Source: a virus. Taken from it: a stretch of DNA of 22,420 bases. This document shows positions 1 through 22,420 of the stretch, one piece after another (the stretch's first letter is position 1; every line of letters starts with the position of its first letter). The stretch lies in IMG/VR virus record IMGVR_UViG_3300009974_000001; one strand, written 5' to 3'. The position numbers and the translations under genes were made by a program. The notes below the pieces were generated by a model that saw only the letters and a program-made list of their open reading frames with translations, made no database searches and was not told the DNA's origin.

Positions 1-123
1 ATAAAGCCCTCAAGGTAATGTCCACTGAATACGATGTCATCTATGTACAGGAAGCAACAGAGCTTACCGAGAATGACTGGGAGTCATTGACTACTCGTCT
101 TCGTAATGGGCGTATTCCATATC
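1..123. repeat. Terminal overlap copy 1, identical to 22298-22420; marks circular closure or permutation of a 22,297-bp unit
   Basis: Read directly: ataaagccctcaaggtaatgtcc...cgtattccatatc occurs at both ends of the window. The repeat lies inside the terL reading frame. Confidence 0.95.
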
Positions 124-962
124 AGCAATTGATCGCTGACTGTAATCCGGATATGCCTACGCATTGGCTGAAGCTACGCTGTGACAGAGGCCAGACTAAG
201 TCCATTCCTTCTAGACATGAGGACAACCCTGTTCTGTTTGACCAGCACAGCGGCCTTGTAACGCCTGCTGGAGCTGCGTATATGAAGGCACTGGACAATC
301 TCACAGGCGTACGTTATGAGCGTCTTAGAATGGGAATCTGGGCTGCTGCTGAGGGTCTTGTATACGAGGACTACAATCCTTCTGTTCATATCTATAAGCA
401 CATTGGTGAACCACCGAAGGACTGGACCAGATTTCTTTCCATCGACTTCGGATTTACGAACCCGTTCGTCTGTCAGTTCTGGGCTATCGACAATGATGGA
501 AGAGCTTACCTCTACAAGGAGATCTACAAGACTCGTACCCTCGTGGAGGATCACGCTGCACAGATCAAGGAGCTGCTTCGTAACGAGCCAAAGATTCAGT
601 ACATCATCACAGACCATGACGCAGAGGACAGAGCCACACTGGAACGTCACCTTGGTCTTGGTACACAGAAGGCCAACAAGAATGTATCTGAGGGCATTCA
701 GGCTGTGGCAGCACGATTGAAGGTACAGGCAGATGGTAAGCCTCGTATCTATCTGTGCAGAGATGCTGTGGTGGAAAGAGATCCACAGCTTGAGAACGAG
801 AAGAAGCCTTGCTCTACACTTGAAGAGATTGCAGGTTATGTATGGAACACGGACAAGGACGCACCGGTAAAGTCCAATGACCACGGTATGGATGCCATGA
901 GATACATGGTTGCTCACCTGGATATCAGGGACGTACCTACGCTGCGTACCTTTAATTTCTAG
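1..962 (+). CDS. terL: Large terminase subunit, C-terminal part (continues from 21961-22420 across the circular junction; codon phase starts at base 3)
   Basis: Same frame as 21961-22420 once the 123-bp overlap is merged, giving 432 aa in total. It has Walker-B-like DVIYVQEATEL. Nuclease-domain acidic motifs are SIDFGFTNPF, ITDHDAEDR and DHGMDAMRY. Stop is TAG at 960-962. Confidence 0.9.
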   Translation, partial: KALKVMSTEYDVIYVQEATELTENDWESLTTRLRNGRIPYQQLIADCNPDMPTHWLKLRCDRGQTKSIPSRHEDNPVLFDQHSGLVTPAGAAYMKALDNLTGVRYERLRMGIWAAAEGLVYEDYNPSVHIYKHIGEPPKDWTRFLSIDFGFTNPFVCQFWAIDNDGRAYLYKEIYKTRTLVEDHAAQIKELLRNEPKIQYIITDHDAEDRATLERHLGLGTQKANKNVSEGIQAVAARLKVQADGKPRIYLCRDAVVERDPQLENEKKPCSTLEEIAGYVWNTDKDAPVKSNDHGMDAMRYMVAHLDIRDVPTLRTFNF

Positions 963-971
963 GAGACGACT

Positions 972-1199
972 ATGGAACAGCTAAAGAAGAAGTATGCACT
1001 TGCGCTGCTTCGTATCAGGGGGTTCAGACTGAGTCCCACTACAGCAGGGAATCTCATGGGCATTATCGGATGTATCCTTATCGGCATTGGAGTATTCATC
1101 TTCTCCATTCCATTTGGATTCATCCTTAGTGGTATCATGTGTATTGTAATTGGATCTCAGATTGTGACGAATGGAGCGAATAATGAGTATCCTCGCTAA
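972..1199 (+). CDS. Small membrane protein with two predicted TM helices (75 aa), function unknown
   Basis: SD taggaga lies 5 nt upstream of the ATG. Hydrophobic stretches are LMGIIGCILIGIGVFIFSI and FGFILSGIMCIVIG. Its end overlaps the portal start. Confidence 0.6.
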   Translation: MEQLKKKYALALLRIRGFRLSPTTAGNLMGIIGCILIGIGVFIFSIPFGFILSGIMCIVIGSQIVTNGANNEYPR

Positions 1200-2466
1200 T
1201 CTGGGTGCCCTTCTGAACAAGGCTCCTGTGCCATACGTACAGAGATCTGCGGCATCTGAGTGGTTTCAGAATCCCCAGAACGCCAAGTCTCTTACCAACA
1301 TGGAGGCATATGGTTCTGTAGGTACACTGTTTGCCATCGTCAACCGTCTGGCCAACGATACTTCAGCCGTATGCTGGAAGCTGTACCAGACACAGAAGGA
1401 CACACGCAGACGCTATGCGCACACAGGTATGGATGACCGTAAGGAAGTCATTGACCATATGGCGCTGAAGCTTCTTACCAAGCCCAATCCTTTTATGACC
1501 ACGCAGCTATTCATTGAGATTACACAGCAGCACATTGATCTGACTGGTGAATCTTTCTGGGCTGTAGTAAGTGAGTATGGAATTCCGTACGAACTGTGGC
1601 CTCTTCGTCCAGACAGAATGACTATTGTCTGTGATGCGGAGAACTACCTTACTGGATATGTGTATACAACTCCAGAGGGACGTAAGATTCCCATGGAGAA
1701 GGAACAGATTATCCATCTGAAGATGCCGTCTCCTGTGGATATCTACAGAGGTGCTTCACCAGTATCTGCCATTCTTCCTGATCTTGAATCGTCTCGTCTT
1801 TCATCTGAATGGAATCGTAACTTCTTCAAGAACTCCGCCGTTCCTGGTGGTGTGATTCAGGTAGAAGGAAGACTTTCTGACGCTGCCTTCTATGAGATGA
1901 TGCTTCGTTGGCAGGAGCAGCACAAGGGTGTGGCTAACGCACATCGTGCGGCTGTACTGGATAATGGTGGTAAGTGGATTCCTACTGCTATGACAATGCG
2001 CGATATGCAGTTCGCTGAATTGCGTGATGTCTCTTCTCAGGTAATCCGTGAAGCATTCGGCTTCCCCAAGTTCAAGCTTGGTGATGTGACTGATGTAAAC
2101 CGTGCCAATGCTGATGCCTCTGAGCGTATGTATGCACGATCACTATTGAAGCCAAGACTTGAGAGAATCAAGCAGGCGCTCAACACACAGCTTCTTCCTC
2201 TGTTCGGCTCATCTGGTTCTGGAATTGAATTCGACTATGATTCTCCTGAGCCCGATGACGAAGAGCTGGAGATGCAAGAGCGTCTGAACAAGGCACAGGC
2301 TGCGAAGACTCTTGTGGACGCCGGATATGATCCTGCGTCTATTCTTGAGGTGGTAGGACTACCGCCAATGGAACACAGAACAGAGAAGTCTCAGCCTATT
2401 GTTCCCCCTATTACTACTCCTGGAGAGGAGACGCCAAATGAAGACGTGGTACCGCCTGGAGAATAA
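1183..2466 (+). CDS. Portal protein (HK97-family type), 427 aa from the ATG at 1183
   Basis: Size and position fit a gene between terL and the protease. Portal-like segments are GESFWAVV and REAFGFPKFKLGD, with an acidic C-terminal tail. GGAG lies 6 nt before ATG 1183; the ORF track starts at 1171. Confidence 0.85.
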   Translation: MSILANLGALLNKAPVPYVQRSAASEWFQNPQNAKSLTNMEAYGSVGTLFAIVNRLANDTSAVCWKLYQTQKDTRRRYAHTGMDDRKEVIDHMALKLLTKPNPFMTTQLFIEITQQHIDLTGESFWAVVSEYGIPYELWPLRPDRMTIVCDAENYLTGYVYTTPEGRKIPMEKEQIIHLKMPSPVDIYRGASPVSAILPDLESSRLSSEWNRNFFKNSAVPGGVIQVEGRLSDAAFYEMMLRWQEQHKGVANAHRAAVLDNGGKWIPTAMTMRDMQFAELRDVSSQVIREAFGFPKFKLGDVTDVNRANADASERMYARSLLKPRLERIKQALNTQLLPLFGSSGSGIEFDYDSPEPDDEELEMQERLNKAQAAKTLVDAGYDPASILEVVGLPPMEHRTEKSQPIVPPITTPGEETPNEDVVPPGE

Positions 2467-3334
2467 GGCTAATTCCACACCTACTCTTTTCCTGTATGAT
2501 GAAATCGGTGGATTCGGAATCAGCGCATCTGATTTCATGACTGATCTTATGGCCGTGGAAGGCGACGCCATTGATGTACATATCTCCTCTCTTGGTGGAG
2601 AAGTATTCCAGGGCTTCGCTATCTATCAGGCATTGAAGGATCACCCTGCTATGGTGAACGTCTATGTGGATTCCATTGCGGCCTCTATTGCTTCTGTCAT
2701 TGCTATGGCAGGCGACAAGGTAGTCATGGGCAAGAATTCACAGATGATGATTCATGATGGTCATGTGACGATGCAGGGCAATGCTGCGGATCTTACCCGT
2801 ATGATCGACCAGTTGAACCGTGCCTCTGACAATATCGCCTCTGTCTATGCAGAGCGTACTGGTGGAGACATCGCTGAATGGCGTAATGCCATGAAGGACG
2901 AGACATGGTTCAATGCTGAGGAAGCTGTTGCTGCTGGTCTTGCTGACGAGGTTTCTCAGTCATCCAAGAAGGTACGCAATGTGGCTGATCTACAGATCTT
3001 CAACTATGCAGGTCGTCAGTTCGCTCCTGCTCCTACTATTCTGGGGCAGAAGAGTACTGAGAAGAAGGAACCATATGGAGATGTGGAATACGCAGATCCT
3101 GGTTACCAGAACGACGGTAAGAAGAGATACCCGATTGACACCGAAGAGCACATTCGTGCCGCTTGGAGTTACATCAATCAATCAGATAATGCTAAACTGT
3201 ATACAGCAGAACAACTTAGCAATATCAAAAGCCGTATCAAGACAGCGGCTAAGAAGTTCGGGATTCAGATCTCGGACGCTATCGACACTGAATCCCTAAT
3301 CAAGGCTATTAAGGAAGGACTAAGTCATGGCTAA
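2438..3334 (+). CDS. ClpP-like (S14) prohead maturation protease with an extra conserved C-terminal domain
   Basis: ClpP-type serine context DSIAASIASVIAMAGD and histidine context QMMIHDG. SD ggagaggag precedes ATG 2438. The C-terminus carries YADPGYQNDGKKRYPIDTEEHIRAAWSYI. Confidence 0.85.
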   Translation: MKTWYRLENKANSTPTLFLYDEIGGFGISASDFMTDLMAVEGDAIDVHISSLGGEVFQGFAIYQALKDHPAMVNVYVDSIAASIASVIAMAGDKVVMGKNSQMMIHDGHVTMQGNAADLTRMIDQLNRASDNIASVYAERTGGDIAEWRNAMKDETWFNAEEAVAAGLADEVSQSSKKVRNVADLQIFNYAGRQFAPAPTILGQKSTEKKEPYGDVEYADPGYQNDGKKRYPIDTEEHIRAAWSYINQSDNAKLYTAEQLSNIKSRIKTAAKKFGIQISDAIDTESLIKAIKEGLSHG

Positions 3335-4649
3335 GATGGCTATTCCAACCAGCCAGAATGAGCTTGAAGAGCTGCTGGCTGACCCAACCAAGGCAGGTGA
3401 GCTGGTCAACAACGGGCAGATGCCAGAAGTTGTACAGGCTTACGCTGCTACTCTGGACCGCAAGGACCCTGACATCAAGGCTCAGGTTCAGGACCAGGTG
3501 AAGTCCGTTATGTTTGACTTCCTACGTGAGAACGACCAGAAGACTGCGGGTGCACTTAACATCCGTCCAGGTAAGGGCAAGGACACTTCTGTATACAACG
3601 CTGCTGCTCCTGGCGCAGATGTTGAGAAGGAGTTCTCCGGACTTTCCAACTTCTTCCAGTCCATCTGGCACAACGCTGACCGTTCTCCTGAGCTAGTCGC
3701 AAGACTTAACAAGGTACGTAACGCTGCGTCTTCCTACGATGGAGCTTCTGGTGGATTCCTGATTCCAGAGACTACACGTAGCGAGATTCTTGATCTTGCT
3801 CTTGAGGACTCTGTTGTACGTCCTCGTGCAACCGTTATTCCTATGAGCACTCCTCGTACGCTTATCCCAGCCAACGACGTTACCTCTAACGTCAGCTCCC
3901 TGTATGGTGGAGTTGTGGCTTACTGGGAGTCCGAGGCACAGGCTCACACCTCTACCAATGCACAGTTCCAGGCTATCGAGCTTAACGCTCACAAGTTGAC
4001 TGCGTACACTGAGGTTCCTAACGAGCTTATTGCTGATGGTGTAGGCTTTGAGGCTTACATGAACAAGGCATTCCCGAAGGCTCTTGCTCACTACGAGGAC
4101 TACGCATTCATGCGTGGAACTGGTGTGGGACAGCCAGAAGGATTCCTTAACTCTGACGCTGCTGTATCCGTGGCCAAGGAGTCTGGACAGGCAGCCGACA
4201 CAATCCTGTGGCAGAACATTGTGAAGATGTACTCTCGTATGCTTCCTGGTTCTCTGAACAACGCTGTGTGGATTGTTCCACCTAACGCTTTCCCTGAGCT
4301 TGCAACTATGGCTCTGAGCGTTGGTACTGGTGGATCTGCTATCTGGCTGAACAACGGTCAGGTTGGTCCTCCAATGACCATTCTTGGTCGTCCTGTGATT
4401 GTTACTGAGAAGGCTCCTAAGCTTGGAGACGCTGCGGACATCAGCTTCGTGGACCTGAGCTACTACCTGATCGGTGACCGTCAGATGATGACTGCTACTT
4501 CTTCCCCTCACTACCTGTTCAACCAGGACAAGACAGCCTTCAAGGTTCTGTCTCGTGTTGACGGACGTGTGTGGATGAACAGCGCTATCACTCCTAAGAA
4601 CGCTGGAGACACCCTGTCTCCTGTCGTTACTCTGGCTGAGCGCGCGTAA
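3327..4649 (+). CDS. Major capsid protein, HK97 fold, with an N-terminal delta/scaffold region
   Basis: 440 aa, directly after the protease with an 8-nt overlap. HK97-family-like segments are SGGFLIPE, FMRGTGVGQPEGFLN and ILGRPVIVTEKAP. Confidence 0.9.
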   Translation: MAKMAIPTSQNELEELLADPTKAGELVNNGQMPEVVQAYAATLDRKDPDIKAQVQDQVKSVMFDFLRENDQKTAGALNIRPGKGKDTSVYNAAAPGADVEKEFSGLSNFFQSIWHNADRSPELVARLNKVRNAASSYDGASGGFLIPETTRSEILDLALEDSVVRPRATVIPMSTPRTLIPANDVTSNVSSLYGGVVAYWESEAQAHTSTNAQFQAIELNAHKLTAYTEVPNELIADGVGFEAYMNKAFPKALAHYEDYAFMRGTGVGQPEGFLNSDAAVSVAKESGQAADTILWQNIVKMYSRMLPGSLNNAVWIVPPNAFPELATMALSVGTGGSAIWLNNGQVGPPMTILGRPVIVTEKAPKLGDAADISFVDLSYYLIGDRQMMTATSSPHYLFNQDKTAFKVLSRVDGRVWMNSAITPKNAGDTLSPVVTLAERA

Positions 4650-4744: not shown

Positions 4745-5179
4745 ATGTCTATGTACGGAGTAGGACTCGGAAGAGTCTTCAACGTAGTAGCTGCGGCTTC
4801 TGGAGTAACTATTCCATTGACCAAGGCTGAGGCTGTTTCCTTCGTTACTTACGAGGACGACGGAACAACTATCGCAACGATTACTCAGGTTGACTCCACT
4901 GGAACAAACCCTGAGATTGCCCTTGATGTGGACAATTACCCATACAAGGCTCCTGGTATCGGTGGAACCTGGACTGCTATGGCAGAACAGGACGACACTC
5001 TGGCTCTTGGTGGAGACACTACGAATGACAGCATGTGCTTCGTTGTTCGTGGAGACCAGCTAACCGATGGGTACGATGGAGTTCAGGTAACCACAGATGG
5101 TGGTATTTGCATGGCTTTCATTCACGACCTGAAGGTGCAGCGTAAGCCTTCCAACCTAGCCAGCAACATTGTTGCGTAA
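4745..5179 (+). CDS. Hypothetical structural protein (144 aa), possibly a head accessory or decoration protein
   Basis: SD ggaga lies upstream of the ATG. It is a clean ORF between capsid and connector genes. No motif recognised. Confidence 0.6.
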   Translation: MSMYGVGLGRVFNVVAAASGVTIPLTKAEAVSFVTYEDDGTTIATITQVDSTGTNPEIALDVDNYPYKAPGIGGTWTAMAEQDDTLALGGDTTNDSMCFVVRGDQLTDGYDGVQVTTDGGICMAFIHDLKVQRKPSNLASNIVA

Positions 5180-5191
5180 GGAGGATAGCTG

Positions 5192-5653
5192 ATGTCTGTA
5201 CTAATCAACGGTAACGAACTGAGATCTATTGCTCTTGGTCGTGGACTGGTATCAAAGTCCACAGGTACCATTACTGGTAACCCAACGACTGCGCTGTTTA
5301 CTGTGACTGGTGGAGAAGTTATGATTACTTCTCTGTACGGTAAGGTAACCACAGCACTGTCTACTGATGGTGGAACCTATGCCCTTCAGGCTAATCCAAC
5401 CACAGGTGATACGCAGACAATCGTTACGGCAACTGACCTTGGTACAACTGATACCGCTGTTGGTTCTGTGATTGGACTTGACCAGGGTACTACTGCTGCT
5501 ACGAAGTTTCTTCGTGGTGGTCGTGTAGACCTTAACGCAGTTGTCACCACAGGACAGATTGAATTCGTTGGTGCTTCATCTGCCAACGGAGCCATTACGT
5601 TCTACGTAACCTGGATTCCTCTGACAGATGGTGCAGCTCTCGTGGCTGCGTAA
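5192..5653 (+). CDS. Hypothetical Thr/Gly-rich beta-type protein (153 aa), possibly a head accessory protein
   Basis: SD aaggagga lies upstream of the ATG. Composition is rich in T, G, A and V, for example TGTITGNPTTALFTVTGG. No motif recognised. Confidence 0.6.
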   Translation: MSVLINGNELRSIALGRGLVSKSTGTITGNPTTALFTVTGGEVMITSLYGKVTTALSTDGGTYALQANPTTGDTQTIVTATDLGTTDTAVGSVIGLDQGTTAATKFLRGGRVDLNAVVTTGQIEFVGASSANGAITFYVTWIPLTDGAALVAA

Positions 5654-5663
5654 TCATTTACGT

Positions 5664-5700
5664 AAAGGCCGTATCGTATATTAAATGCGGTACGGCCTTT
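5664..5700. terminator. Intrinsic terminator, A-tract/U-tract flanked and so potentially bidirectional
   Basis: aaaggccgta (5664-5673) pairs with tacggccttt (5691-5700), with inner extension. It is followed by actcgttt. Confidence 0.7.
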
Positions 5701-5720
5701 ACTCGTTTAAGGAGAAGACT

Positions 5721-5897
5721 ATGTCTTATGGAGATATCATCGCCATTTACCAAGAGGCGATTCAGAATGCAGAGCAGGATAGGGCAACTCCACCAGACGA
5801 GTGTCCCAATGATGGTACTACTCTGATGGAAGATGAGAATGGAGTACTGACATGTAAGTGGGATGGCTGGCAGTATCTGGGATATAACCTGCCATAA
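5721..5897 (+). CDS. Small hypothetical protein (58 aa)
   Basis: SD aaggaga lies 6 nt upstream of ATG 5721. The track ORF start at 5685 lies inside the terminator hairpin. Confidence 0.55.
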   Translation: MSYGDIIAIYQEAIQNAEQDRATPPDECPNDGTTLMEDENGVLTCKWDGWQYLGYNLP

Positions 5898-5935: not shown

Positions 5936-6973
5936 ATGGGAAATTGGTATTGCACGAGAGAGGATGTAAAGGAAGCTCTCGATATCAAGCTGACAGCGAG
6001 AATGGATCGCGTCATTGACCGCGCTGTGGAAGCAGCATCACGTAGTGTAGAGAATCTTACACGTAGAGTTTTCTATCCGACAGTAGCAACGAAGTACTAC
6101 GACTATCCCAACCGTGTGACGTCATACGCATACAGACAGTGGCTGGATCAGCCAGACCAATTGATCTCTGTGACATCCCTTGTCTCTGGTGGTACTACTC
6201 TGGCAGCCAATGAATACTTCCTTGAGCCGATCAACAGTGGTCCTCCGTATAGCCGTATCGAGATCAACCTAGGTCTCAATGAGACATTTGATGCTGATGA
6301 CACATGGCAGCGACAGACTGTTGTCACAGGTACATGGGGTTACGATACTTCCTGGTCTTCAGCCACCACGATCACAGGTAACATCAACTCTTCCGTTACA
6401 ACAGTTCCTATCGATGATTCAGCCGCTGTAGGTGTGGGAGATCTTATCCGTGTAGGTACTGAATGGATGTACGTAACGGCCAAGGCTATGGTGGATACCG
6501 GAGATGACGTAACGCTTACCTCTGCACAGAATGCTGTGACTCTTACCGGTCTCACATCAGGGAATCTGAATGTGGGAGAGGTCATCCTTGTGGACTCTGA
6601 GAGAATGCTGGTTGTCGATATTGTGGGTACTACAGCTACCGTACAGAGAGCCTATGACGGTTCAGTCCTGGCTGCCCACTCAGGAGCCTCTGTATACGCC
6701 CTACGCAGCCTTACAGTAGTCAGAGGTGCCAATGGTTCAACCGCAGCCTCACACACGTCAGGAGACGCTGTAGAGCGTTTCGAATATCCAGGGCAGATTC
6801 GTCAGCTTGCTATTGCTGAGGCTCTGGTTCTTATCATGCAGGGACAAGCAGGTTATGGAAGAACAGTCGGCTCCGGAGATAATCAGAGAGAGTCTTCCGG
6901 TAAGGGTCTTATGGACTTGCGTAATCAGGTAAGACTTGCCTATGGAAGACGTTCAAGACATATGGCGGTGTAA
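5936..6973 (+). CDS. Head-tail connector/adaptor-like protein with a long inserted C-terminal region (345 aa)
   Basis: The N-terminus MGNWYCTREDVKEALDI...RVIDRAVEAASRSVENLTRR resembles gp6-type head-tail connector N-termini (recall). It is the first gene of the neck block. SD aaggaga present. Confidence 0.5.
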   Translation: MGNWYCTREDVKEALDIKLTARMDRVIDRAVEAASRSVENLTRRVFYPTVATKYYDYPNRVTSYAYRQWLDQPDQLISVTSLVSGGTTLAANEYFLEPINSGPPYSRIEINLGLNETFDADDTWQRQTVVTGTWGYDTSWSSATTITGNINSSVTTVPIDDSAAVGVGDLIRVGTEWMYVTAKAMVDTGDDVTLTSAQNAVTLTGLTSGNLNVGEVILVDSERMLVVDIVGTTATVQRAYDGSVLAAHSGASVYALRSLTVVRGANGSTAASHTSGDAVERFEYPGQIRQLAIAEALVLIMQGQAGYGRTVGSGDNQRESSGKGLMDLRNQVRLAYGRRSRHMAV

Positions 6974-6975
6974 TC

Positions 6976-7365
6976 ATGCTAGGAGCCAAGACTTCTGTTG
7001 ATTTCGATGGTCCTCTCTTCAATGGAAGAGCCGTAAAGATCTTTGATGACTTTGCCAAGGATGCCGAAAAGGACATCGCACAGGATACGCTACGTGCTAT
7101 CAGACGCAGATTCCATGTGCACTTCAAGCATCCTACTGGCAGATACGAATCCAATGTCCATATCTCTGGTGCTGGTGAAGGTACTGAGATCAATGACCGT
7201 GGAATTGTATATGGTCCATGGCTTGAGGGAATCGGCAAGAAGAATCGCACTACCCGATTTAAGGGATATCATTCCTTTGAAGAAGCCGCCAATGAGGTTG
7301 ACAGCAGAGCAGATGACATTGCGGAAAGAACATTCCGCCTGAAGTGGAAAAGGAGACTGGAATAA
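6976..7365 (+). CDS. HK97 gp10-like neck / head-closure protein (129 aa)
   Basis: The pattern GRYESNVHI...IVYGPWLEGIGKKNRTTRFKGYHSFE matches my recollection of the gp10 family. It sits in the neck block. Confidence 0.55.
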   Translation: MLGAKTSVDFDGPLFNGRAVKIFDDFAKDAEKDIAQDTLRAIRRRFHVHFKHPTGRYESNVHISGAGEGTEINDRGIVYGPWLEGIGKKNRTTRFKGYHSFEEAANEVDSRADDIAERTFRLKWKRRLE

Positions 7366-9480: not shown

Positions 9481-9512
9481 CTAGTTGTCCAGTCTTGGTG
9501 TATACTTGGACT

Positions 9513-10383: not shown

Positions 10384-10403
10384 TAACACAGAAGGAGACC
10401 CCA

Positions 10404-15600: not shown

Positions 15601-16906
15601 GACAGAAGGAAAGCGTTCTACGCAGCGTCCTCCCAACGGAATCGGGCGTTACAGAGACGAGAAGACCATCTCGCTCTACCGCGATAGAGATCTTCCTGGG
15701 CAGGCTCAATGGAGAGTCTTCGTAGGTACACGAGATGACTTGCGTGTGGACACTATTACCATTGCTCTGGAGAATCCGCGTATTGGTGGAGTGGCAGACA
15801 ACATCTACCGCTTCTACACTGCGGATATCGGTGACCGTATCGTACTGAGTGACTTGCCTCTGCTGCTGAATCCGGATGACATGGAGCTTACTATCGTAGG
15901 TTACAACGAGTTCTTCGATCAGTTCCAGCACAGCATCACATTCAACTGTGCGCCTGGTTCTGCTTTTGCGGTGGCTCAGACTGTGGCAACGTCCACAACT
16001 ACCTCCTCAAAGGCTTCCAGTGGGTCTACAACGACCTCTGAGGCCCTGGACACTACAGAGACTGCCATTGATGTTTCTGTGGCGTCAGGGAGCGCCCTGT
16101 GGTCTCAGACAGCCTCTGATTTCGATATCGTCATCGGAGGAGAGCGTATGACTGTGACGTCTCTGAGTTACGTATCAGATACATTCAGCCGTACCTCTGT
16201 GGATAGCTGGGGTTCTGCTGACACCGGACAGTCCTGGACCAATACCGGAGGAGCAGCGTCTGAGTACGATGTGGGCTCTGGCGTAGGTACGCACAACCAC
16301 ACAAGCGTCAATGTATCTCGTCAGTCCACAGTGGCGACTCCTTACAACAATGCCAATTTCGACGTTACTGTTACAGTATCGACGGATAAGCTAGCTGTAG
16401 GAGGAAGTCAGTTCGTTTATGCGGTTGGAAGATGGCAGGACACCAACAACATGTACTATGCCCGTCTGGAGTTCGCTACTACTGCTGTGGTTACTCTTAC
16501 ACTGCGTAAGAGAGTTGCGGGAGTGGATGGTGTACTGGGCACATTCGTACTGGACGAGACACATGCAGCCGGTCGTCAGTTCAACATCCGTATCCAGGGA
16601 ATCGGAACATCCATCAAGGCAAGAGCGTGGAGAACCGGATATGCTGAGCCGGATTACTGGCAGACATCTGCTACAGATTCGGATATCACGGCGTCTGGTC
16701 AGGTAGGAGTCCGTGGAGTTCTTTCTTCTGCGGCTTCCAACACACCTGTCCTGATTTCATGGGACAACTTCAAGACGAATGCGTTGACCAACCAGACGTT
16801 CAATGTCACTCGTAGCGTCAATGGTGTGGTGAAGAGCCACGCCACTGGAGCTGACGTAACTTTGTTCAAGCCCGCTTATGCGGCACTAGGCGAAACAGCA
16901 TCTTAG
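12638..16906 (+). CDS. Giant tail-tip protein (1422 aa): extra N-terminal domain, Dit-like domain, two LamG/ConA-like insertions, Tal-like minor-tail region and a C-terminal binding-type domain
   Basis: SD aaggaga. The Dit-like segment is ELEINGTWTDVTDDVRYENGISITRGTSSQGG...LTFSNADGKYSVLNP. The LamG-like segment is ALRVTLDVNNGSSGHTVTFYTSSTLDGSWTQLG. The Tal-like segment is RVDTITIALENPRI...DRIVLSDLP. Domain names are from recall. Confidence 0.75.
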   Translation: MVAVVASSVATSTNNTDATSVTVTKPAGTASGHLMIAVTHGYTADTFTPPTGWTFLELEDDATNLRSRAYMKVAGSSEPANYTFTFQPGPGGGTIGASIVTFSGHGGLDSYNVFAPGTSDPDDSTIFPLAPTRDGIGYAVYTWRDTTSDTVTWTGATELFDATAGDAGLTQYRGQSGAWETSTAGTTASWSVNPTNSITHAVRWQFFIADAVPANESWASTGTAVELEINGTWTDVTDDVRYENGISITRGTSSQGGQVNPSTAVLTFSNADGKYSVLNPTSEFYPYLNLTVPCRISKAYGTVAAEFLGFYDVVADPAKGVDRFRTPSTDSLNITGDIDIRVDVEPETWKMTQVLAAKHGVLNFAGPGSTVSGWVFYLDSIGTPNLLWVDSSGATTLNAAATACVGTEMRQALRVTLDVNNGSSGHTVTFYTSSTLDGSWTQLGSAVVVSGTTSINANTMALTVGAVEPLIDGTDFTYYNNNVPLPLTNTVLDAVQSFTPPVFRPFRGRIYGMELKSGIAGTTVAKPTFDTQTTGTKSLTDAQGNLWTAYGYVVCHNRKYRHHGEITVWPQPRDITGSDAWVEVESTGVLNREQQGTPEEKSALYKSYTSPSGSTDLLPDAYGNYALRGPYYPVAYWPMEDNALPGADTDAPAQELSWSAIVRNFRTGRTQEPQPGTVTGTVEFGSDNTFFASKSAAKFTTGSMIRFPVLNAESGAWLAEFIIYAPDGITNGSRIAEVRQTGADRIVRLTYSATDTLVLTVHDASGTQIATSGSMSAAINRRHNRLSIFADGVGGYNLLYENQSDRVATSLGSAIGTTTGRIYEVRLNANQTMNGVYLAHLAVFDGEDATTYPYGSGKISSLSQASDLDAWRREPAARRAERLTWEQELINYNIGDGGPWMGQQTTNSYVSSMQEVQAVDMGYLYEPRQVLGLGYRTRTSMYNPPPVLELSYESNDLSGTFSPVRDNRGSVNDITVEKEFGAKGRYELTEGKRSTQRPPNGIGRYRDEKTISLYRDRDLPGQAQWRVFVGTRDDLRVDTITIALENPRIGGVADNIYRFYTADIGDRIVLSDLPLLLNPDDMELTIVGYNEFFDQFQHSITFNCAPGSAFAVAQTVATSTTTSSKASSGSTTTSEALDTTETAIDVSVASGSALWSQTASDFDIVIGGERMTVTSLSYVSDTFSRTSVDSWGSADTGQSWTNTGGAASEYDVGSGVGTHNHTSVNVSRQSTVATPYNNANFDVTVTVSTDKLAVGGSQFVYAVGRWQDTNNMYYARLEFATTAVVTLTLRKRVAGVDGVLGTFVLDETHAAGRQFNIRIQGIGTSIKARAWRTGYAEPDYWQTSATDSDITASGQVGVRGVLSSAASNTPVLISWDNFKTNALTNQTFNVTRSVNGVVKSHATGADVTLFKPAYAALGETAS

Positions 16907-16916
16907 GAGATCAACA

Positions 16917-17438
16917 ATGGCAGAATATTACCCACGATGGGAAGCAGGTCAGGACATTACGGCTGACCTCCTTAATGCAGGTCTTCCCAGAGTCATCAGA
17001 AAGACCGCTGACACGGTGAAGAACAACACCACTACCGTAGCCGCTGATCCAGAGCTTCAGATTTCTCTGGAAGCCAATGCGGTGTACGTATGGGAAGGGT
17101 GGCTGAAGTATGACGTACGTCCTACTTCTGACATTCAGATTGACTTCAGCGCGCCTTCTGGAGCGCTAGGAGAGTGGGCTGGTATGGGTGCAGGATCTGG
17201 AACTGGTGCATCTACCGCAGCAGGTTACTCCATCCGTACAGAGACCAACGACATCACCCAGCTCCGTACGTACTATGGAACCACGGCGTCCAATCCTATG
17301 GCGCTGTTCCTGTATGGGACTATCCGTATGGGTTCCACCAGTGGGACTTTCTCATTGGACTGGGCTCCAGCAAACGCTGTGGCAGAAGATACCACGGTAT
17401 ATACTGATAGCTGGTTGAAGTTCCAGCGAATCGCATAA
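16917..17438 (+). CDS. Minor tail protein-like (173 aa)
   Basis: SD aggaga. Position and the pattern ITADLLNAGLPRVIRKTADT...LEANAVYVWEGWLKYD resemble actinophage minor tail proteins (recall). Confidence 0.5.
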   Translation: MAEYYPRWEAGQDITADLLNAGLPRVIRKTADTVKNNTTTVAADPELQISLEANAVYVWEGWLKYDVRPTSDIQIDFSAPSGALGEWAGMGAGSGTGASTAAGYSIRTETNDITQLRTYYGTTASNPMALFLYGTIRMGSTSGTFSLDWAPANAVAEDTTVYTDSWLKFQRIA

Positions 17439-17448: not shown

Positions 17449-17703
17449 ATGGCAATCGTAGTACCCTATAGGGAATCGATTCAATACGATGGAACCAATG
17501 GTTCCTACATCATCGGAACCTGGGTAACAGGCGCTACTGATTTCGTATCCGACAATGGCACAACGCTTACGTGGGAAAACGAAGAAAACGCCATTCGTAC
17601 AGTAAATGTAGGTGGCTGGGTAATCAAGCGTTCGGATACGGATGGAGATCCTGAACAGCTTACCAACGCGGAATACCTTGAGCGCTATGTAGAGCTACCG
17701 TAG
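17449..17703 (+). CDS. Hypothetical protein (84 aa), last gene of the tail block
   Basis: SD aaggag lies 6 nt upstream. A terminator follows. Confidence 0.55.
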   Translation: MAIVVPYRESIQYDGTNGSYIIGTWVTGATDFVSDNGTTLTWENEENAIRTVNVGGWVIKRSDTDGDPEQLTNAEYLERYVELP

Positions 17704-18032: not shown

Positions 18033-18176
18033 ATGGGATGCCCAAAGGCGTACAAGGACGAACTGTCTGCCAAGATGGCCGCTGGAAAGATCCTGGTACA
18101 GTCACGAGGCAAGCAGGAACCCAAAGCGGTACACTGCCACAGGTGCAAGAAGTGGCATCTTGAGAACGCCAAGTAG
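18033..18176 (+). CDS. 47-aa zinc-ribbon-like protein (GCP...HCHRCKKWHL)
   Basis: Translated by hand: MGCPKAYKDELSAKMAAGKILVQSRGKQEPKAVHCHRCKKWHLENAK. SD aaggaga is upstream. It is below the ORF-track length cutoff. Confidence 0.55.
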   Translation: MGCPKAYKDELSAKMAAGKILVQSRGKQEPKAVHCHRCKKWHLENAK

Positions 18177-18312: not shown

Positions 18313-18594
18313 CTAGCTGTTCAGTTCATTCAGTGAGCGGTCGATAAAATTTGCGAGCTGCTTACCTACTTCATCCTTCTGAGGCTCTGTAAGCCCCGTA
18401 CAGGCTTCGTTGGTATCTCCGATAGGCTCGGTACCCGTGTAGGTGGGAAAGTCCCTTACAACGGCGTATACGCATTCCTGGACGGGGTCTGGAGTCTCGC
18501 TTGTCATACCAAGAGTACCGAGGCAAGCCAAGGCACCGAGTACTCCAGATACAACAGCCACCGCAAAGGGGTTGGGACGGTTCATAGCGTTCAT
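18313..18594 (-). CDS. Secreted or lipoprotein-like small protein (93 aa from the internal ATG)
   Basis: AGGAG lies 8 nt upstream of ATG 18594. The signal-like N-terminus is MNAMNRPNPFAVAVVSGVLGALAC. The track start at 18663 would overlap the upstream microprotein gene. Confidence 0.55.
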   Translation of the reverse strand: MNAMNRPNPFAVAVVSGVLGALACLGTLGMTSETPDPVQECVYAVVRDFPTYTGTEPIGDTNEACTGLTEPQKDEVGKQLANFIDRSLNELNS

Positions 18595-18950: not shown

Positions 18951-18952
18951 GG

Positions 18953-19150: not shown

Positions 19151-19155
19151 TGCGT

Positions 19156-19338
19156 TTAAAGCTCTACAGTGATGTTCGCTGTTTCCAGTTCCTTCAGAGA
19201 GTCGTACTGACTGAAGTAGTTCTCCAGAGCCATACGGATAAGATATCCTTCCGAACGGTCCAGATCACTTGATACTTCTTTCAGCTTGATACTCATCTCA
19301 GGATCAATGAGAAATGTCTTGGATACTGTGTAAGCCAT
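19156..19338 (-). CDS. Ribbon-helix-helix (CopG/Arc/MetJ-type) DNA-binding protein (60 aa)
   Basis: Beta-strand then two helices: KTFLIDPEMSIKLKEVSSDLDRSEGYLIRMALENYF. SD AAGGAG lies 5 nt upstream. Confidence 0.7.
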   Translation of the reverse strand: MAYTVSKTFLIDPEMSIKLKEVSSDLDRSEGYLIRMALENYFSQYDSLKELETANITVEL

Positions 19339-19415
19339 CTTATCTCCTTATTTTGCTTGGCAAAAGCTTGGTAGTTAGTTATCTTATGAGATAGGTTTCT
19401 CTCTGTGTTAATACT

Positions 19416-19444
19416 AGTATAGCAGAGGAGATAAGATGTGTCAA
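19416..19444 (-). promoter_or_regulatory. Near-consensus sigma70-type promoter for the RHH operon: TTGACA, 17 nt, TATACT, with TGC as an extended -10
   Basis: The reverse complement of 19416-19444 reads ttgacaCATCTTATCTCCTCTGCtatact. Confidence 0.7.
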
Positions 19445-19449
19445 GCGAA

Positions 19450-19476
19450 GAACCTCACTTAGAAGGTGTGAGGTTC
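19450..19476 (-). terminator. Terminator after the rep-like gene
   Basis: gaacctcac (19450-19458) pairs with gtgaggttc (19468-19476). The - strand RNA continues UUCGCUU. Confidence 0.6.
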
Positions 19477-19491
19477 GTCACATAAGATCTT

Positions 19492-20640
19492 CTAGTAAGC
19501 GTGTGCTTGTACACGTAGTGCTGAGTACTTGGCCAAACGCTCTGATGACTGCGGAGATAGAGTAGGTGTTGTAGATGAGTTGGTGGTCTCAGATTCTGTA
19601 GAAGGGGAGTCACCGTACTTGGCTTCCCAGACCTTCATATCCTGTCTCCACTTACCCATGGCCTTGTTGAACGCTACCTCTGCGTTGTGAACTCTTCTCT
19701 CATGAGCAAAGTCATCGTGGTAAGGGTTACGGTTAGGAACCTCGTAGACAGGCTTCTGAGGCTTCTCTGGTACTGTCTGGACCTTCGCCCCAGGTTCTGC
19801 GCCAGAGGCGCTTAGAGGGGCGTCTACGACCTTTACAGGCTCCTTCTTACGCGGAGCGGCAGCTCTGCGAGGAGCCAGGGGATGAGGAGTACGTGTAATG
19901 TCTTTCGTTGTTACTGTTTCGTTATCAACGTCTACGTTCTTCTCACCAGAGGAAATGGTAGAAGGAGCCGCGTTAGCGGTGACTTCGTCTACCAGAGGAG
20001 AAATACCAATCTCTTCAATAACTTCTCTCTTAGTATCACCAGAGGAAACTAGTTCCTTACCAGGGAAGACCAGAGGAGACTTAGTCTCTACCAAGGCTCC
20101 CCCCTGGTTTTCCCCTGGTGAACTACTCATAACGGACATTTCCTTATTATTAGGTGAAATATTTACTGAACTATCTACTGAACTATTAGACCCTTCTACA
20201 GCAGGGGGGTAGTACCCTTCTACAGCAGGGGGGTAGTACCCTTCTACAGCAGGGGGGTTAGCTTCTGATGCAGGGTACTCTAGAGGAGTTGGTGCTGTGA
20301 CCCCTTCTACAGCAGGGGGGTTAGAAGATCTGTACTTCTCGGTGTTGACTTCAGCCTGCGGGAGTGCCATGATGGCTTCTGGAACGAGGAAGTAGCTGTT
20401 TCGCTTTCCTGGATTCTTCTGGACAGTCACCAGCCCTGGCAGGTAGGTATCGACTCCCTTGAAGTTCTTGGCGTTCTTGATTCCTCTGGTCTGGCATAGT
20501 CTTGCCACACCTGGGAAAGCTTCGTTGGTCTCGATGTTGCTTCTCATGATCAGCTCCACGAGAAGGATCTTGTCCTTGGCATCGAGAGTACTGATGTTCA
20601 CGACATTGATCATGTCGAACTTATTGGGCTTGTTGCTCAT
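19492..20640 (-). CDS. Rep-like or replisome-organizer-like protein: N-terminal winged HTH, PPAVEG repeats and a long low-complexity region (382 aa)
   Basis: The N-terminus LDAKDKILLVELIMRSN...EAFPGVARLCQTRGIKNAKNF...LVTVQK resembles HTH domains of plasmid and phage initiators (recall). SD AAGGAAA present. Confidence 0.55.
   Translation of the reverse strand: MSNKPNKFDMINVVNISTLDAKDKILLVELIMRSNIETNEAFPGVARLCQTRGIKNAKNFKGVDTYLPGLVTVQKNPGKRNSYFLVPEAIMALPQAEVNTEKYRSSNPPAVEGVTAPTPLEYPASEANPPAVEGYYPPAVEGYYPPAVEGSNSSVDSSVNISPNNKEMSVMSSSPGENQGGALVETKSPLVFPGKELVSSGDTKREVIEEIGISPLVDEVTANAAPSTISSGEKNVDVDNETVTTKDITRTPHPLAPRRAAAPRKKEPVKVVDAPLSASGAEPGAKVQTVPEKPQKPVYEVPNRNPYHDDFAHERRVHNAEVAFNKAMGKWRQDMKVWEAKYGDSPSTESETTNSSTTPTLSPQSSERLAKYSALRVQAHAY
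20121..20190. other. AT-rich tract inside the rep-like gene (20 G/C in 70 nt by hand count), candidate DNA-unwinding element
   Basis: aactactcataacggacatttccttattattaggtgaaatatttactgaactatctactgaactattaga. It includes tactgaactat twice (20164-20174 and 20176-20186). Confidence 0.4.
20191..20321. repeat. Four copies of the 20-bp repeat cccttctacagcaggggggt (three in tandem at 24-bp period, one 44 bp further on), iteron-like
   Basis: Copies are at 20191-20210, 20215-20234, 20239-20258 and 20302-20321. They encode the (Y)YPPAVEG / NPPAVEG peptide repeats on the - strand. Confidence 0.9.
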
Positions 20641-20648: not shown

Positions 20649-20654
20649 TTCCTT

Positions 20655-20697
20655 ATAGTAGTGGTGAAGGCGGTCTTCCTGGCGGGGGCCGCTTTTT
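20655..20697 (+). ncRNA. Candidate countertranscript of about 43 nt, complementary to the wHTH-rep intercistronic leader
   Basis: The predicted TSS is about 7 nt after the hexamer (A at 20655). The hairpin spans 20667-20695, with core pairs 20670-20678 to 20684-20692. It includes G-U pairs that exist only in the + strand RNA, and its 3' arm runs into the T-run at 20693-20697. Confidence 0.4.
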
Positions 20698-20920
20698 ACT
20701 TTTCCAGGGTCTCGTAGTTGAATCTCTTGGTCTGGGGAACCTCAGTAACAGTCACCCATCCATTCTTCTTCAGTACCTTTACATACGCGTTGATGGACTG
20801 CGTCGTAGTGTGCAGCTCATGTGCCAGAACGGCCTGTGAGTGGATTCCTGGATTCTCCTTCAGGTAGAAGTAGAGAACCTTTGCCCCGGGCTGGATCTTG
20901 GCGTTGTAGATGGTTTCCAT
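20696..20920 (-). CDS. Small winged-HTH transcriptional regulator (74 aa from ATG 20920)
   Basis: LYFYLKENPGIHSQAVLAHELHTTTQSINAYVKVLKKNGWVTV. SD GGAGA lies 5 nt upstream of ATG 20920. Confidence 0.65.
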   Translation of the reverse strand: METIYNAKIQPGAKVLYFYLKENPGIHSQAVLAHELHTTTQSINAYVKVLKKNGWVTVTEVPQTKRFNYETLEK

Positions 20921-20958
20921 GGTTATCTCCATTGGTAGTTTTTCTCGCTTACATTAAT

Positions 20959-20967
20959 AGTATAGCA
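20959..20967 (-). promoter_or_regulatory. Extended -10 TGCTATACT for the wHTH-rep operon
   Basis: The reverse complement of agtatagca is the same 9-mer as in the RHH promoter. It lies about 32 nt upstream of ATG 20920. Confidence 0.5.
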
Positions 20968-20991
20968 CAGACTACTATCGTAAGTTTTGAT

Positions 20992-21041
20992 AGTATAGAC
21001 TCTAATCCATGTGATGTTTGTCACATACAACAGACTATACT
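20992..21041. promoter_or_regulatory. Dyad-symmetric control region: back-to-back TATACT boxes flanking the palindrome atgtga-N6-tcacat
   Basis: agtatagact (20992-21001) and agactatact (21032-21041) form a 9/10 inverted repeat. The central palindrome arms are 21009-21014 and 21021-21026. Confidence 0.5.
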
Positions 21042-21226: not shown

Positions 21227-21346
21227 ATGGCTATCAAGAAGATCGACATTCTCATGGACCAGGCACTAAAGACCCCTGAAGGACGAAAGGTCATTGCTGA
21301 GAAGCTTAGAAAGGAATTGCGTAGAAATGGGACAAACGTCAGATAA
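21227..21346 (+). CDS. 39-aa basic microprotein, first ORF of the late operon
   Basis: SD aaggaga lies 6 nt upstream. Hand translation: MAIKKIDILMDQALKTPEGRKVIAEKLRKELRRNGTNVR. It overlaps the terS start by 20 nt. Confidence 0.45.
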   Translation: MAIKKIDILMDQALKTPEGRKVIAEKLRKELRRNGTNVR

Positions 21347-21773
21347 GTCAACAGATGCTGACAGCTCTGCTATCAATCCACGCAGACCTTTGTCAAACCC
21401 GTGGACTCGGGGACAGCTAATTGCTGATCTCGCCACTGGTGAGTACACACAGACATTCCTGGCATCCAAGTATGGAGTAACACCTGGAGCGATTAGTCAG
21501 TTCAATAAGCGATACTCTCCTCAAGTTGAAGAACGTAGAGAACGTCTGTTGGATGAATATCAGGATCTGTGGATCGCTACCAAGTACAACCGTTTGGCAG
21601 CCCTTCAGACACTTGCTGAGGAGCTATCGGATGACGAGACTACTCCACGTACCGCAGAGGTGATTGATCGTCTCCTGCGTTCAGCAGCAGAAGAGTTGGG
21701 AGATCTGGAGACCAAGATCTCTGTAGACGTAGCTGAGTATCGCATTACAGGAATTGATCTAGACAAACTATAG
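21327..21773 (+). CDS. Small terminase subunit (148 aa from the first ATG)
   Basis: It lies upstream of terL. The N-terminal HTH-like segment is WTRGQLIADLATGEYTQTFLASKYGVTPGAISQFNKR, followed by a helical region. The track start at 21294 is a TTG. Confidence 0.65.
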   Translation: MGQTSDKSTDADSSAINPRRPLSNPWTRGQLIADLATGEYTQTFLASKYGVTPGAISQFNKRYSPQVEERRERLLDEYQDLWIATKYNRLAALQTLAEELSDDETTPRTAEVIDRLLRSAAEELGDLETKISVDVAEYRITGIDLDKL

Positions 21774-21781
21774 GAGTATTG

Positions 21782-21943
21782 ATGCCACCACGTAAGAAGA
21801 CAGAAGTAAAGCCAGAGCCCGTAGAAACACCTGTGGTCTTTGGTAATGAGAAGACTGCTCTTACATCTCTTGCCCGCCTATTGCACCGTAAGGGCGTACT
21901 GGACAAGGATGAATTCGAGAGAGTAATTACTGAACTTGGATAG
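21782..21943 (+). CDS. 53-aa protein between terS and terL
   Basis: SD taggag is upstream. Hand translation: MPPRKKTEVKPEPVETPVVFGNEKTALTSLARLLHRKGVLDKDEFERVITELG. Confidence 0.45.
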   Translation: MPPRKKTEVKPEPVETPVVFGNEKTALTSLARLLHRKGVLDKDEFERVITELG

Positions 21944-21960
21944 TAGAAAGGAAATCGGGA

Positions 21961-22420
21961 ATGGAATACGTACACCACTATCAGCCTTTTGGTAATGCGA
22001 TTGAACTGTTCTATTCCCGTGATCCTGAAGTCCTCTATGAGGGCGCAGCAGGAACGGGTAAGTCGAGAGCATGTATCGAGAAGCTACATCTGTTGGCCAT
22101 GAAGTATCCCAACGCACGTATCCTCATGGTACGTAAGACACTCGTATCGCTCTCTGGTTCTGGTATCCAGACCTATGAACAGCATGTGGCGAGGGAACAT
22201 CTGGCTACAGGAGAAGTACAGTTCTTCGGTGGGTCCACTAGGGAACCCGCGTCATACCGTTATAAGAATGGCAGCCGTATCGTTCTTGGTGGAATGGATA
22301 AAGCCCTCAAGGTAATGTCCACTGAATACGATGTCATCTATGTACAGGAAGCAACAGAGCTTACCGAGAATGACTGGGAGTCATTGACTACTCGTCTTCG
22401 TAATGGGCGTATTCCATATC
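21961..22420 (+). CDS. Large terminase subunit, N-terminal ATPase part (runs off the window end and continues at base 124 after overlap merging)
   Basis: Hand translation: MEYVHHYQPFGNAIELFYSRDPEVLYEGAAGTGKSRACIEK..., with Walker A GAAGTGKS. It is in phase with 18-962 through the overlap. Confidence 0.9.
   Translation, partial: MEYVHHYQPFGNAIELFYSRDPEVLYEGAAGTGKSRACIEKLHLLAMKYPNARILMVRKTLVSLSGSGIQTYEQHVAREHLATGEVQFFGGSTREPASYRYKNGSRIVLGGMDKALKVMSTEYDVIYVQEATELTENDWESLTTRLRNGRIPY
22298..22420. repeat. Terminal overlap copy 2, identical to 1-123
   Basis: Direct comparison of the two window ends. Confidence 0.95.

Follow-up and report, generated by a model that had tools for sequence, protein, structure and literature searches.

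The 22,420-nucleotide stretch analysed here, IMG/VR virus record IMGVR_UViG_3300009974_000001 (called the window below, at its whole length), is the genome of a small tailed phage in which the missing endolysin is a real anomaly, common to other genomes of the same kind. Textbook lysis by tailed phages requires a holin and an endolysin, and missed lysins are frequent in metagenomic phages, their absence being usually blamed on poor annotation. Here, relatives of equal size carry four lysin types in one fixed slot, where the window and at least nine relatives carry nothing enzyme-sized, and this slot comparison turns "not annotated" into a specific, testable claim. The phage itself is an HK97-type siphovirus of actinomycetes with a familiar replication design, and its unusual feature is the comparative absence of a lysin. 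The explanation that we favour, tentatively and at a little less than an even chance, is a membrane-protein-triggered lysis through host autolysins.

The slot is defined as the gene directly after the 170- to 173-amino-acid (aa) tail protein, encoded at 16917-17438 in the window, and it was compared across relatives (L numbers, like rel1, are our handles for their genomes and contigs, and P numbers those for proteins). It is occupied by an NlpC/P60-LysM gene in L109 and by an Amidase_2 gene in L115, both directly after the homolog of the 173-aa protein, and by a GH25 gene in L116, directly after the 170-aa tail homolog. In L018, a gene for a PG_binding_1 protein, then one for a small membrane protein, follow the positional counterpart of the tail gene; no homology is detected between this L018 product and the 173-aa protein, and it is a counterpart by position. 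L109 (21.8-22.3 kb), L115 (21.5 kb) and L116 (22.1 kb) have the genome size of the window and encode a tail-tip protein 34-40% identical to that of the window, then the 170- to 173-aa tail protein. The structural module of L109 and L115 matches that of the window gene for gene, whereas L116 differs by a Peptidase_S78 prohead protease and a weak capsid-family match. Unlike the window, the three genomes have a GC content of 0.61-0.71 and a lysin in the slot. IMG/VR scans with the 173-aa protein gave no relative.

No lysin is recognised in nine further genomes or partial contigs (rel1, L010, L107, L110, L111, L112, L114, L123 and L124), by comparison of open reading frames (ORFs) with the window for rel1 and L010 and by precomputed Pfam matches for the other seven. 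L112 (5.8 kb) and L114 (14.5 kb) are partial genomes, and most lysin-less relatives are 21-26 kb long. The search of relatives for a lysin module, which the initial annotation had proposed, gives four relatives with one and nine genomes or partial contigs in which none is recognised. The GC content of the lysin-less group is 0.44-0.65. A lysin loss that would track low GC was considered and ruled out, as L123 and L124, at 0.65, are also without lysin; the loss is therefore not tied to low GC.

The window's own slot is occupied by an 84-aa protein that is probably structural, since its homologs in rel1, L010 and L123 have an additional C-terminal domain, Ig-like by eye, which suggests a virion protein. 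The slot of L107 holds an unrelated 81-aa gene, and in L114 the gene called after the tail gene lies on the other strand. Every window protein of more than 100 aa, except for the initiator and two homing endonucleases, has a homolog in the lysin-bearing L109, and the largest clade-specific unknowns are of 93 and 84 aa, which to our knowledge is smaller than lysin catalytic domains. Annotation and these sequence comparisons together appear to rule out a canonical-sized endolysin, and to do so across many genomes.

Direct searches for a lysin agree with this comparison. PHROGs profiles were run on 30 products (leaving out the large terminase, TerL, and the small minus-strand ORFs at 18638-19084), Pfam on about 30 products (leaving out TerL, portal, protease, major capsid protein, 10718-10996, 21779-21943 and the ORFs at 18638-19084) and on the 10 longest alternative-frame ORFs, and NCBIfam on 10 unknown products; TerL, portal, protease and major capsid protein are identified via PHROGs and precomputed Pfam matches. 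For the scanned products, these three libraries of hidden Markov models (HMMs) give no match to a lysozyme, amidase, NlpC/P60, M23 or LysM protein, none to an integrase or recombinase, and none to a polymerase, primase or helicase, in agreement with the initial annotation, which had recognised no endolysin, integrase or replisome enzyme. The alternative-frame ORFs give nothing in Pfam, the small proteins give, at E <= 5, only a match of the 72-aa protein to DUF7201 (E = 0.011), and no homolog of the relatives' lysins is found in the window. The same Pfam search does detect a tyrosine integrase in L018.

The initial annotation had also counted the absent integrase and replisome as part of the puzzle, but such absences are ordinary for a small, non-integrating phage with an initiator-plus-iteron origin. 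The phage probably does not integrate and is probably virulent. A TerL scan of 185,579 species genomes finds only distant prophages, of at most 56% identity, in Streptomyces, Actinacidiphila, Nonomuraea, Phycisphaerae and Chloroflexota, and the host is not identified thereby. As to a phage-plasmid, a candidate initiator is present, but ParA/ParB, toxin-antitoxin systems and resolvases have no match in PHROGs, Pfam or NCBIfam, and PLSDB has no match to the window.

A lysin concealed in the 1422-aa tail protein or in the genes at 4745-5653, as envisaged earlier, is disfavoured by the lectin and hub folds of the former and by the presence of these proteins in L109. The AlphaFold2 (AF2) model of tail residues 1-1170, with a predicted local distance difference test (pLDDT) score of 83 and a predicted TM-score (pTM) of 0.81, is nearly all beta-strand. 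Its top Foldseek matches in PDB form two groups. To the first belong lectin domains (LamG, neurexin and concanavalin-like) and the domain by which botulinum toxin binds, to the second the hubs of phages and of injection machines akin to them (the MuSo2 43-kDa tail protein, diffocin, the phiCD508 needle, VgrG1 and mycobacteriophage Douge gp20); no lysozyme, amidase or peptidase is among the top 50. The C-terminal domain reads as LamG-like from its sequence pattern, and it is the only part that is lacking in tail variants of about 1200 aa, including those of the lysin-less L110 and L114. A PHROG label of "phosphodiesterase" on this C-terminus was rejected as the sign of an enzyme, no GDPD-type motif being seen and the domain being absent in L110 and L114. 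No region of the tail-tip protein is confined to lysin-less genomes: P0027, from a lysin-bearing genome, has the same architecture as P0013 and P0022, from lysin-less ones, and the tail protein of L109 the same as those of L110 and L114. L109 also has homologs of 4745-5179, 5192-5653, 9040-9480 and 16917-17438.

For the AF2 model of the 146-aa product of 9040-9480 (pLDDT 90), whose gene lies between two tube-like genes, PDB offers no match (best E = 0.1) and BFVD a single one, to an unnamed viral protein. C34, C39, C88 and H92 are invariant in the family, and their arrangement in two knuckles is typical of a structural zinc site. The product has an orphan fold with a predicted zinc site, and not a hydrolase fold. 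It was considered as a small metallopeptidase or CHAP-like enzyme and rejected, given its knuckles (CxxxxC and CxxxH) and the lack of a hydrolase match in the model. The fold search proposed in the initial annotation, carried out on these two models, reveals a hydrolase fold in neither. Sequence searches against PDB with the tail protein alone, a 48-sequence tail profile and the 146-aa and 173-aa family profiles give no usable result, their sole match being a non-significant "phage tail fiber" (E = 1.5) for the 173-aa protein.

Three small membrane or secreted proteins had been called lysis-like in the initial annotation, and hydrophobic segments are confirmed in them: two in the product of 972-1199, one, C-terminal, in that of 17805-18023 and one, N-terminal, in that of 18313-18594. 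The 72-aa product of 17805-18023 has a weak match to phrog_689, "holin" (E = 1.2e-3), and tblastn finds its homologs in Microbacterium, Streptomyces and Arthrobacter phages. The homolog adjoins the endolysin in all five isolates inspected (Caron gp21, Honk gp20, IAmGroot gp22, BaileyBlu gp20 and Dryad gp30). Within the clade its identity is 60-86%, and it is also present in L123 and in the lysin-bearing L109. Judged by homology and neighbourhood, it belongs to an actinophage family of lysis-cassette membrane proteins and would be the only remnant of a lysis cassette in the window.

The 72-aa gene and the 47-aa gene that follows it lie at 17805-18176 in the window and at 10582-10989 in rel1, on opposite sides of the minus-strand early block. 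This opposite placement, together with the terminases that follow the pair in the four relatives whose sequence covers this place (rel1, L010, L012 and L110), indicates that either the early block or the pair has been transposed. In L107, the 72-aa gene is on the minus strand beside a DUF2637 gene. The 47-aa protein is the best-conserved product, with 85-89% identity where TerL has 70-81%. The 75-aa product of 972-1199 is found family-wide, including in lysin-bearing relatives and Streptomyces prophages (60 jackhmmer matches), so that it is not a substitute for a lysin, though it could take part in lysis; its place between terminase and portal is an unusual site for a membrane protein. For the 93-aa product of 18313-18594, jackhmmer finds no homolog in L010, L123 and L124.

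Several lysin-less relatives also encode a multi-pass membrane protein of about 240-290 aa just after the tail genes, of which the window has none. Those of L107 and L111 have a precomputed DUF2637 match, and those of L123 and L124 are judged DUF2637-like by their sequence. L116 encodes a SpdB-like protein (19123-20235); the Spd proteins of Streptomyces plasmids mediate spread between hyphal compartments.

In the mechanism that we propose, the 72-aa membrane protein would permeabilise or depolarise the membrane late in infection, a step in which the 75-aa protein possibly assists. The resulting loss of proton-motive force would release the host's own wall hydrolases, and these would open the hyphal wall, a phage enzyme not being needed. 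Some autolysins indeed become active upon a collapse of the proton-motive force, and once the holin has acted, pneumococcal LytA contributes to the release of phage SV1 (review PMC6116005). A lysis through autolysins is the reading most compatible with the data, that is, with a slot empty of lysin and a cassette membrane protein kept at the identity given above.

Several points weigh against it. The Streptococcus pneumoniae phage SV1 encodes its own endolysin and LytA only contributes, whereas in our model host enzymes alone would open the wall. The holin role of the 72-aa protein is suggested by its neighbourhood in other phages and by the weak phrog_689 match, and in rel1, L010, L012 and L110 its gene is just 5' of the terminase genes, where it could have another late function. 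No tailed dsDNA (double-stranded DNA) phage of a walled host is known to us to lyse without an enzyme of its own. The models cover two products and leave out the 84-, 93-, 47-, 54-, 51- and 43-aa proteins as well as several family-wide unknowns, among which an unrecognised enzyme may be present. Finally, the assignment of the host is indirect.

It is possible, though on the unlikely side, that the phage has a lytic factor of its own that escapes recognition, either a tiny or novel-fold wall hydrolase or an inhibitor of wall synthesis of the "amurin" type. Amurins are the single-gene lysis proteins of small single-stranded DNA and RNA phages; they are small, usually membrane-bound and have no sequence signature. 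The secreted 93-aa protein, the 84-aa slot protein, the 47-aa Cys/His protein and the 146-aa zinc protein could each be such a factor, and the products of 18313-18594, 17805-18023 and 972-1199 are candidates for the amurin type. Several conserved proteins are indeed without function or family, 9040-9480 being without a known fold; the 93-aa protein is exported or membrane-anchored and clade-restricted, and the strongest conservation of all is that of the 47-aa protein. Moreover, a block of wall synthesis should burst tip-growing hyphae. However, L107 and L114 have no slot protein or another gene in its place, and its fusion to an Ig-like domain in other genomes suggests a virion protein; the 146-aa protein occurs in lysin-bearing relatives as well, and the 93-aa protein has the gaps in its distribution reported above. 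We also know of no amurin from a tailed dsDNA phage. The broader proposition, that a widespread lineage of Streptomyces-type siphoviruses of about 22 kb has given up its hydrolase and exits a mycelial Gram-positive host with a thick wall by membrane proteins only, via autolysins or an amurin-like block, seems to us conceivable but doubtful.

The phage could also not lyse its host by itself. The lysin would then come from a co-resident prophage or a co-infecting phage, or virions would be released as the old mycelium is dismantled during Streptomyces development, an option that we regard as rather improbable. It would account for the absence of a lysin from the window and from the nine other genomes or partial contigs, and Streptomyces hyphae do undergo a programmed dismantling. 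The early block, in addition, encodes an Arc-like and a MarR-type regulator, whose duplicated operators suggest a controlled early expression: the two promoter/operator copies, one ahead of each early minus-strand operon, are about 73-89% similar and each has an extended -10 element, TGcTATACT, and a palindrome, TGTGAnGTTnGTCACA, which is probably a shared repressor site for the Arc- or the MarR-type regulator. However, virion, packaging and replication-initiation genes are all present and only the lysin is absent, so that the phage is not a satellite; complete head, packaging and tail genes likewise distinguish it from phage-inducible chromosomal islands (PICI) and P4-like satellites. The retained lysis-cassette membrane protein argues for an active, timed exit, and the diversity of the clade (47-85% identity of the tail protein), found in many samples, is hard to reconcile with one specific helper.

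As the host, a peptidoglycan-walled actinomycete of the Streptomyces type is well supported by the strongly skewed codon usage and by the affinities of several genes. None of the 502 Leu codons of the window is TTA, yet these genes, read in their two other frames, contain the triplet 116 and 52 times. In eight low-GC relatives (L010, L011, L013, L041, L107, L110, L111 and L114), TTA is used 0 or 1 time among 225-388 Leu codons. ATA (3 of 364 Ile codons), AAA (23 of 311 Lys codons) and CAA (29 of 228 Gln codons) are rare and CGG is nearly avoided, while GTA, GGA, ACA, GCA and AGA are common; third-position GC is 0.49 and the overall GC content 49%. There is no tRNA gene in the window, nor any Rfam match. 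Low GC drift, no tRNA and zero TTA together fit a Streptomyces-type (bldA-type) host. A protein of Streptomyces olivaceus shares 41% identity with the tail protein, and the closest relatives of the HNH gene are found in 130-kb Streptomyces phages. Sigma-70-type promoters are present, with an extended -10 element, and, as read by eye, an AGGAG-type Shine-Dalgarno sequence precedes most genes. A TTA-free, low-GC phage genome could thus be a simple sequence cue for predicting a Streptomyces-type host.

A host without peptidoglycan (an archaeon, a mollicute or a Dehalococcoidia-type bacterium) would not need to be opened by an endolysin. A GC content of 44-51%, far under that of typical actinomycetes, and the lack of a close prophage among the species genomes scanned would fit such a host, which is nevertheless very improbable. 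The TTA-free codon usage, the promoters and the Shine-Dalgarno sequences speak against it; capsid, tail, initiator, HNH and lysis-membrane homologs are nearest in Streptomyces or other actinobacterial phages and genomes; sister genomes encode DUF2637, which we take to be an actinomycete-specific family; and L123 and L124 are without lysin at a GC content of 0.65.

The window is a complete genome, as had been claimed initially for a self-closing genome of about 22.3 kb. Its bases 1-123 are identical to 22298-22420, so that the unique sequence is a 22,297-bp circle, and the junction is spanned by the 432-aa TerL ORF. L001-L005, assembled independently from other samples, match the window at 99.8-100% identity, and the capsid protein is residue-for-residue identical on contigs from ENA, JGI and Logan samples. 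Three of these assemblies (L001, L002 and L003) are broken at other positions and cross the end junction colinearly; as they are unbroken there, no sequence is concealed by the 123-bp overlap. The length of L002 fits a closed circle with one 24-bp repeat fewer and a k-mer overlap of 141 (22297 - 24 + 141 = 22414), and so does that of L001 (22297 - 458 - 24 + 141 = about 21957). A divergent sister genome, rel1 (IMGVR_UViG_3300012924_000006; 22,221 bp), likewise ends in a 123-bp repeat, which gives a circle of 22,098 bp, and it has the gene set of the window and the same gene order around TerL; its identity to the window is 81% for TerL and 67% for the tail protein. Coding density is 92% and the largest gap is of at most 391 bp. 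An incomplete or misassembled contig, with a lysis module concealed at the 123-bp overlap, has in its favour only that closure is derived from an assembler overlap and, given these independent assemblies, their lengths and rel1, its chance is close to nil.

Table 1. Features of the window and of related genomes (positions are those of the window unless a relative is named).
Feature	Position	Strand	Basis or remark
Terminal direct repeat	1..123		same as 22298-22420; assembly overlap, circular or circularly permuted genome
Large terminase, C-terminal part	18..962	+	precomputed Pfam match
75-aa membrane protein	972..1199	+	between terminase and portal; phrog_502
Portal protein	1171..2466	+	PHROGs; PF04860
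ClpP-like prohead protease	2399..3334	+	PHROGs, precomputed Pfam
HK97-type major capsid protein	3327..4649	+	PHROGs, Pfam
Three small head-module proteins (144, 153, 70 aa)	4745..5897	+	family-wide, lysin-bearing relatives too
Head-tail adaptor (345 aa) and two connector-type proteins (129, 150 aa)	5936..7818	+	phrog_442; family synteny
HNH homing-type endonuclease	7837..8274	+	PHROGs/Pfam; not in rel1
Tail-tube-like protein	8284..9018	+	family synteny
146-aa Cys/His protein, candidate zinc site, orphan fold	9040..9480	+	family-wide, AF2 model
Endonuclease VII gene	9495..9953	+	PHROGs, Pfam
Major tail protein	9964..10383	+	phrog_10528
Tail assembly chaperone pair	10374..10996	+	-1 slippery site
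Tape measure protein, 512 aa	11013..12551	+	PHROGs
1422-aa fused distal-tail/hub protein, several lectin-like beta-sandwich domains	12638..16906	+	PHROGs, AF2 model
173-aa terminal tail protein, anchor gene before endolysin in lysin-bearing relatives	16917..17438	+	synteny
84-aa protein in endolysin slot	17449..17703	+	homologs in rel1, L010, L123
72-aa protein, N-terminal coiled coil and C-terminal transmembrane helix	17805..18023	+	phrog_5225, E = 8e-8
47-aa Cys/His-rich protein	18033..18176	+	76-89% identity across clade; always directly 3' of 72-aa gene
Early block	18313-20932	-	93-aa protein, small ORFs, Arc-like regulator, 382-aa protein, MarR-type regulator
93-aa signal-anchored or secreted protein, two conserved cysteines	18313..18594	-	one N-terminal hydrophobic segment; clade-restricted
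Arc/CopG-like ribbon-helix-helix regulator	19156..19338	-	PHROGs
Early promoter TTGACA-17-TATACT with TG extension and palindrome TGTGAGGTTCGTCACA	19395..19484	-	duplicated at 20938-21027
382-aa candidate replication initiator	19492..20640	-	winged-helix-like N-terminus, then repeat-bearing linker
Candidate origin inside initiator gene	20155..20324		four 24-bp repeats (20190-20324) beside 12-bp AT-rich repeats (20155-20187)
MarR-type winged-helix regulator	20696..20932	-	Pfam
Second early promoter/operator copy	20938..21027	-	5' of MarR-initiator operon
Small-terminase-like protein	21294..21773	+	weak phrog_57 match; directly 5' of TerL in all relatives
Large terminase, N-terminal part	21961..22420	+	PF04466 Terminase_3; gene goes on at 1-962
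Multi-pass membrane protein, L107	12701-13429
Multi-pass membrane protein, L111	15845-16573
Multi-pass membrane protein, L123	14554-15423
Multi-pass membrane protein, L124	14468-15178

The 382-aa product of 19492-20640, left unassigned in the initial annotation, is a candidate replication initiator with an internal origin, as indicated by its repeats and by the HTH_36 domain of its homologs. The window protein has no Pfam match; PF13730 (HTH_36) is found in its homolog P0208 and, faintly, in that of L110, and a homolog of 40% identity is encoded in the Streptomyces antibioticus chromosome. A tblastn search with the protein gives nothing among phages or plasmids, and nor do pattern scans of IMG/VR. 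Three to four repeats of 24 bp are present at the corresponding position in the homologs of rel1 and L110; in rel1 both the N-terminus and the repeats are related to those of the window, whereas in L110 the N-terminus differs and the repeats are unrelated. Assemblies of the same phage differ in their number of 24-bp repeats, so that the protein is of 382 or 374 aa. These repeats encode a recurring P-x-x-E-G motif, and a role at the protein level is possible. The locus is a swap site, where the window's initiator is replaced by an AAA_25 ATPase in L109, by a 761-aa PrimPol-D5_N protein in L010 and by a PrimPol in L123 and L113. An initiator of the lambda O type, which would act on 24-bp iterons in its own gene and recruit the host replisome, is the most economical reading of the repeats and is well supported. 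In phage lambda, ori-lambda lies inside the O gene, and O has an N-terminal DNA-binding domain, with four repeats in the linker and an AT-rich stretch. The window is similar in its predicted DNA-binding N-terminus, in its four direct repeats in linker DNA beside an AT-rich stretch and in its lack of a helicase or polymerase. It differs in that its protein is not similar to O in sequence and would have an N-terminus of the HTH_36 type (as in homolog P0208), the repeats are of 24 bp and no P-like helicase loader is found.

The other genes are those of a tailed dsDNA phage (Caudoviricetes, HK97-fold, siphovirus type) in which head, packaging and non-contractile tail sets are all present: terminase, portal, ClpP-type protease, HK97-type capsid, tail tube, tape measure and a fused Dit-Tal tail-tip protein. 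No tail sheath match is found in any of the HMM libraries, and the three small head-module proteins have no family match in PHROGs, Pfam or NCBIfam. The likely start of the small-terminase-like gene is the ATG at 21324. The two tail assembly chaperone ORFs overlap around a canonical -1 slippery heptamer, G_GGA_AAA, at 10754-10760, which is in phase. Read by eye from the sequences, the tail-tube-like protein of 8284-9018 would be a paralog of the major tail protein (9964-10383) over its N-terminal 70 aa or so. Morphogenesis takes up about 77% of the circle, and 84% when its span is counted with two inserted nuclease genes, rather than the 87% given initially. These two nucleases, HNH (7837-8274) and endonuclease VII (9495-9953), had been overlooked in the tail module when every ORF was said to be assigned or delimited. 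The endonuclease VII gene is present or absent among near-identical assemblies, as L001 (ERZ27279447) is without 9484-9966 and otherwise 99.8-100% identical, and rel1 is without both genes. Lying between tail genes, both look like currently mobile homing endonuclease genes.

The window belongs to an uncultured lineage of phages of about 21-26 kb whose nearest cultured relatives, by protein comparison, are Streptomyces phages and prophages. Tail-tip homologs are found on many contigs of 21.4-22.8 kb, and none of 50,697 phage records matches the genome by megablast. A text search for the sample accessions yields no habitat. Genomes of about 22 kb would be far smaller than that of any matched isolated Streptomyces siphovirus (at least 37 kb). 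If this lineage does exit by membrane proteins only, it would break the rule by which a tailed dsDNA phage requires an endolysin to leave a walled bacterium. If the absence is real, a phage of about 30 genes offers a tractable system in which to ask whether membrane damage alone can turn Gram-positive wall hydrolases into a lysis engine. The alternative outcome would be a new kind of lysis protein, of relevance to phage biology and antimicrobials.

Lysis cassettes with two small membrane proteins are known from actinophages, for example gp20-22 of Microbacterium phage Caron and LysF1a/LysF1b of the F1-cluster mycobacteriophages (PMC13056207). In Caron and Honk, the "membrane protein" between endolysin and holin is 51-56% identical over 45 aa to the product of 17805-18023; unlike these cassettes, the window has neither the enzyme nor a second cassette membrane protein. 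Among isolates, none of which has nucleotide-level similarity to the window, Dagobah (MT711977; PMC7650747), phiSASD1, Dubu, Dryad and Wentworth are related Streptomyces siphoviruses, of which Dagobah is the closest. They differ by genomes of 37-69 kb, a host-like GC content, an endolysin (Amidase_2 in Dagobah, at another genome location), a PrimPol and many early genes. They nevertheless share with the window the order of terminase, small membrane protein, portal, ClpP protease, capsid, tail genes and huge tail-tip gene, with 28-35% identity of the tail protein to those of the Dagobah group and 54% identity of the capsid protein to that of Dagobah over its full length.

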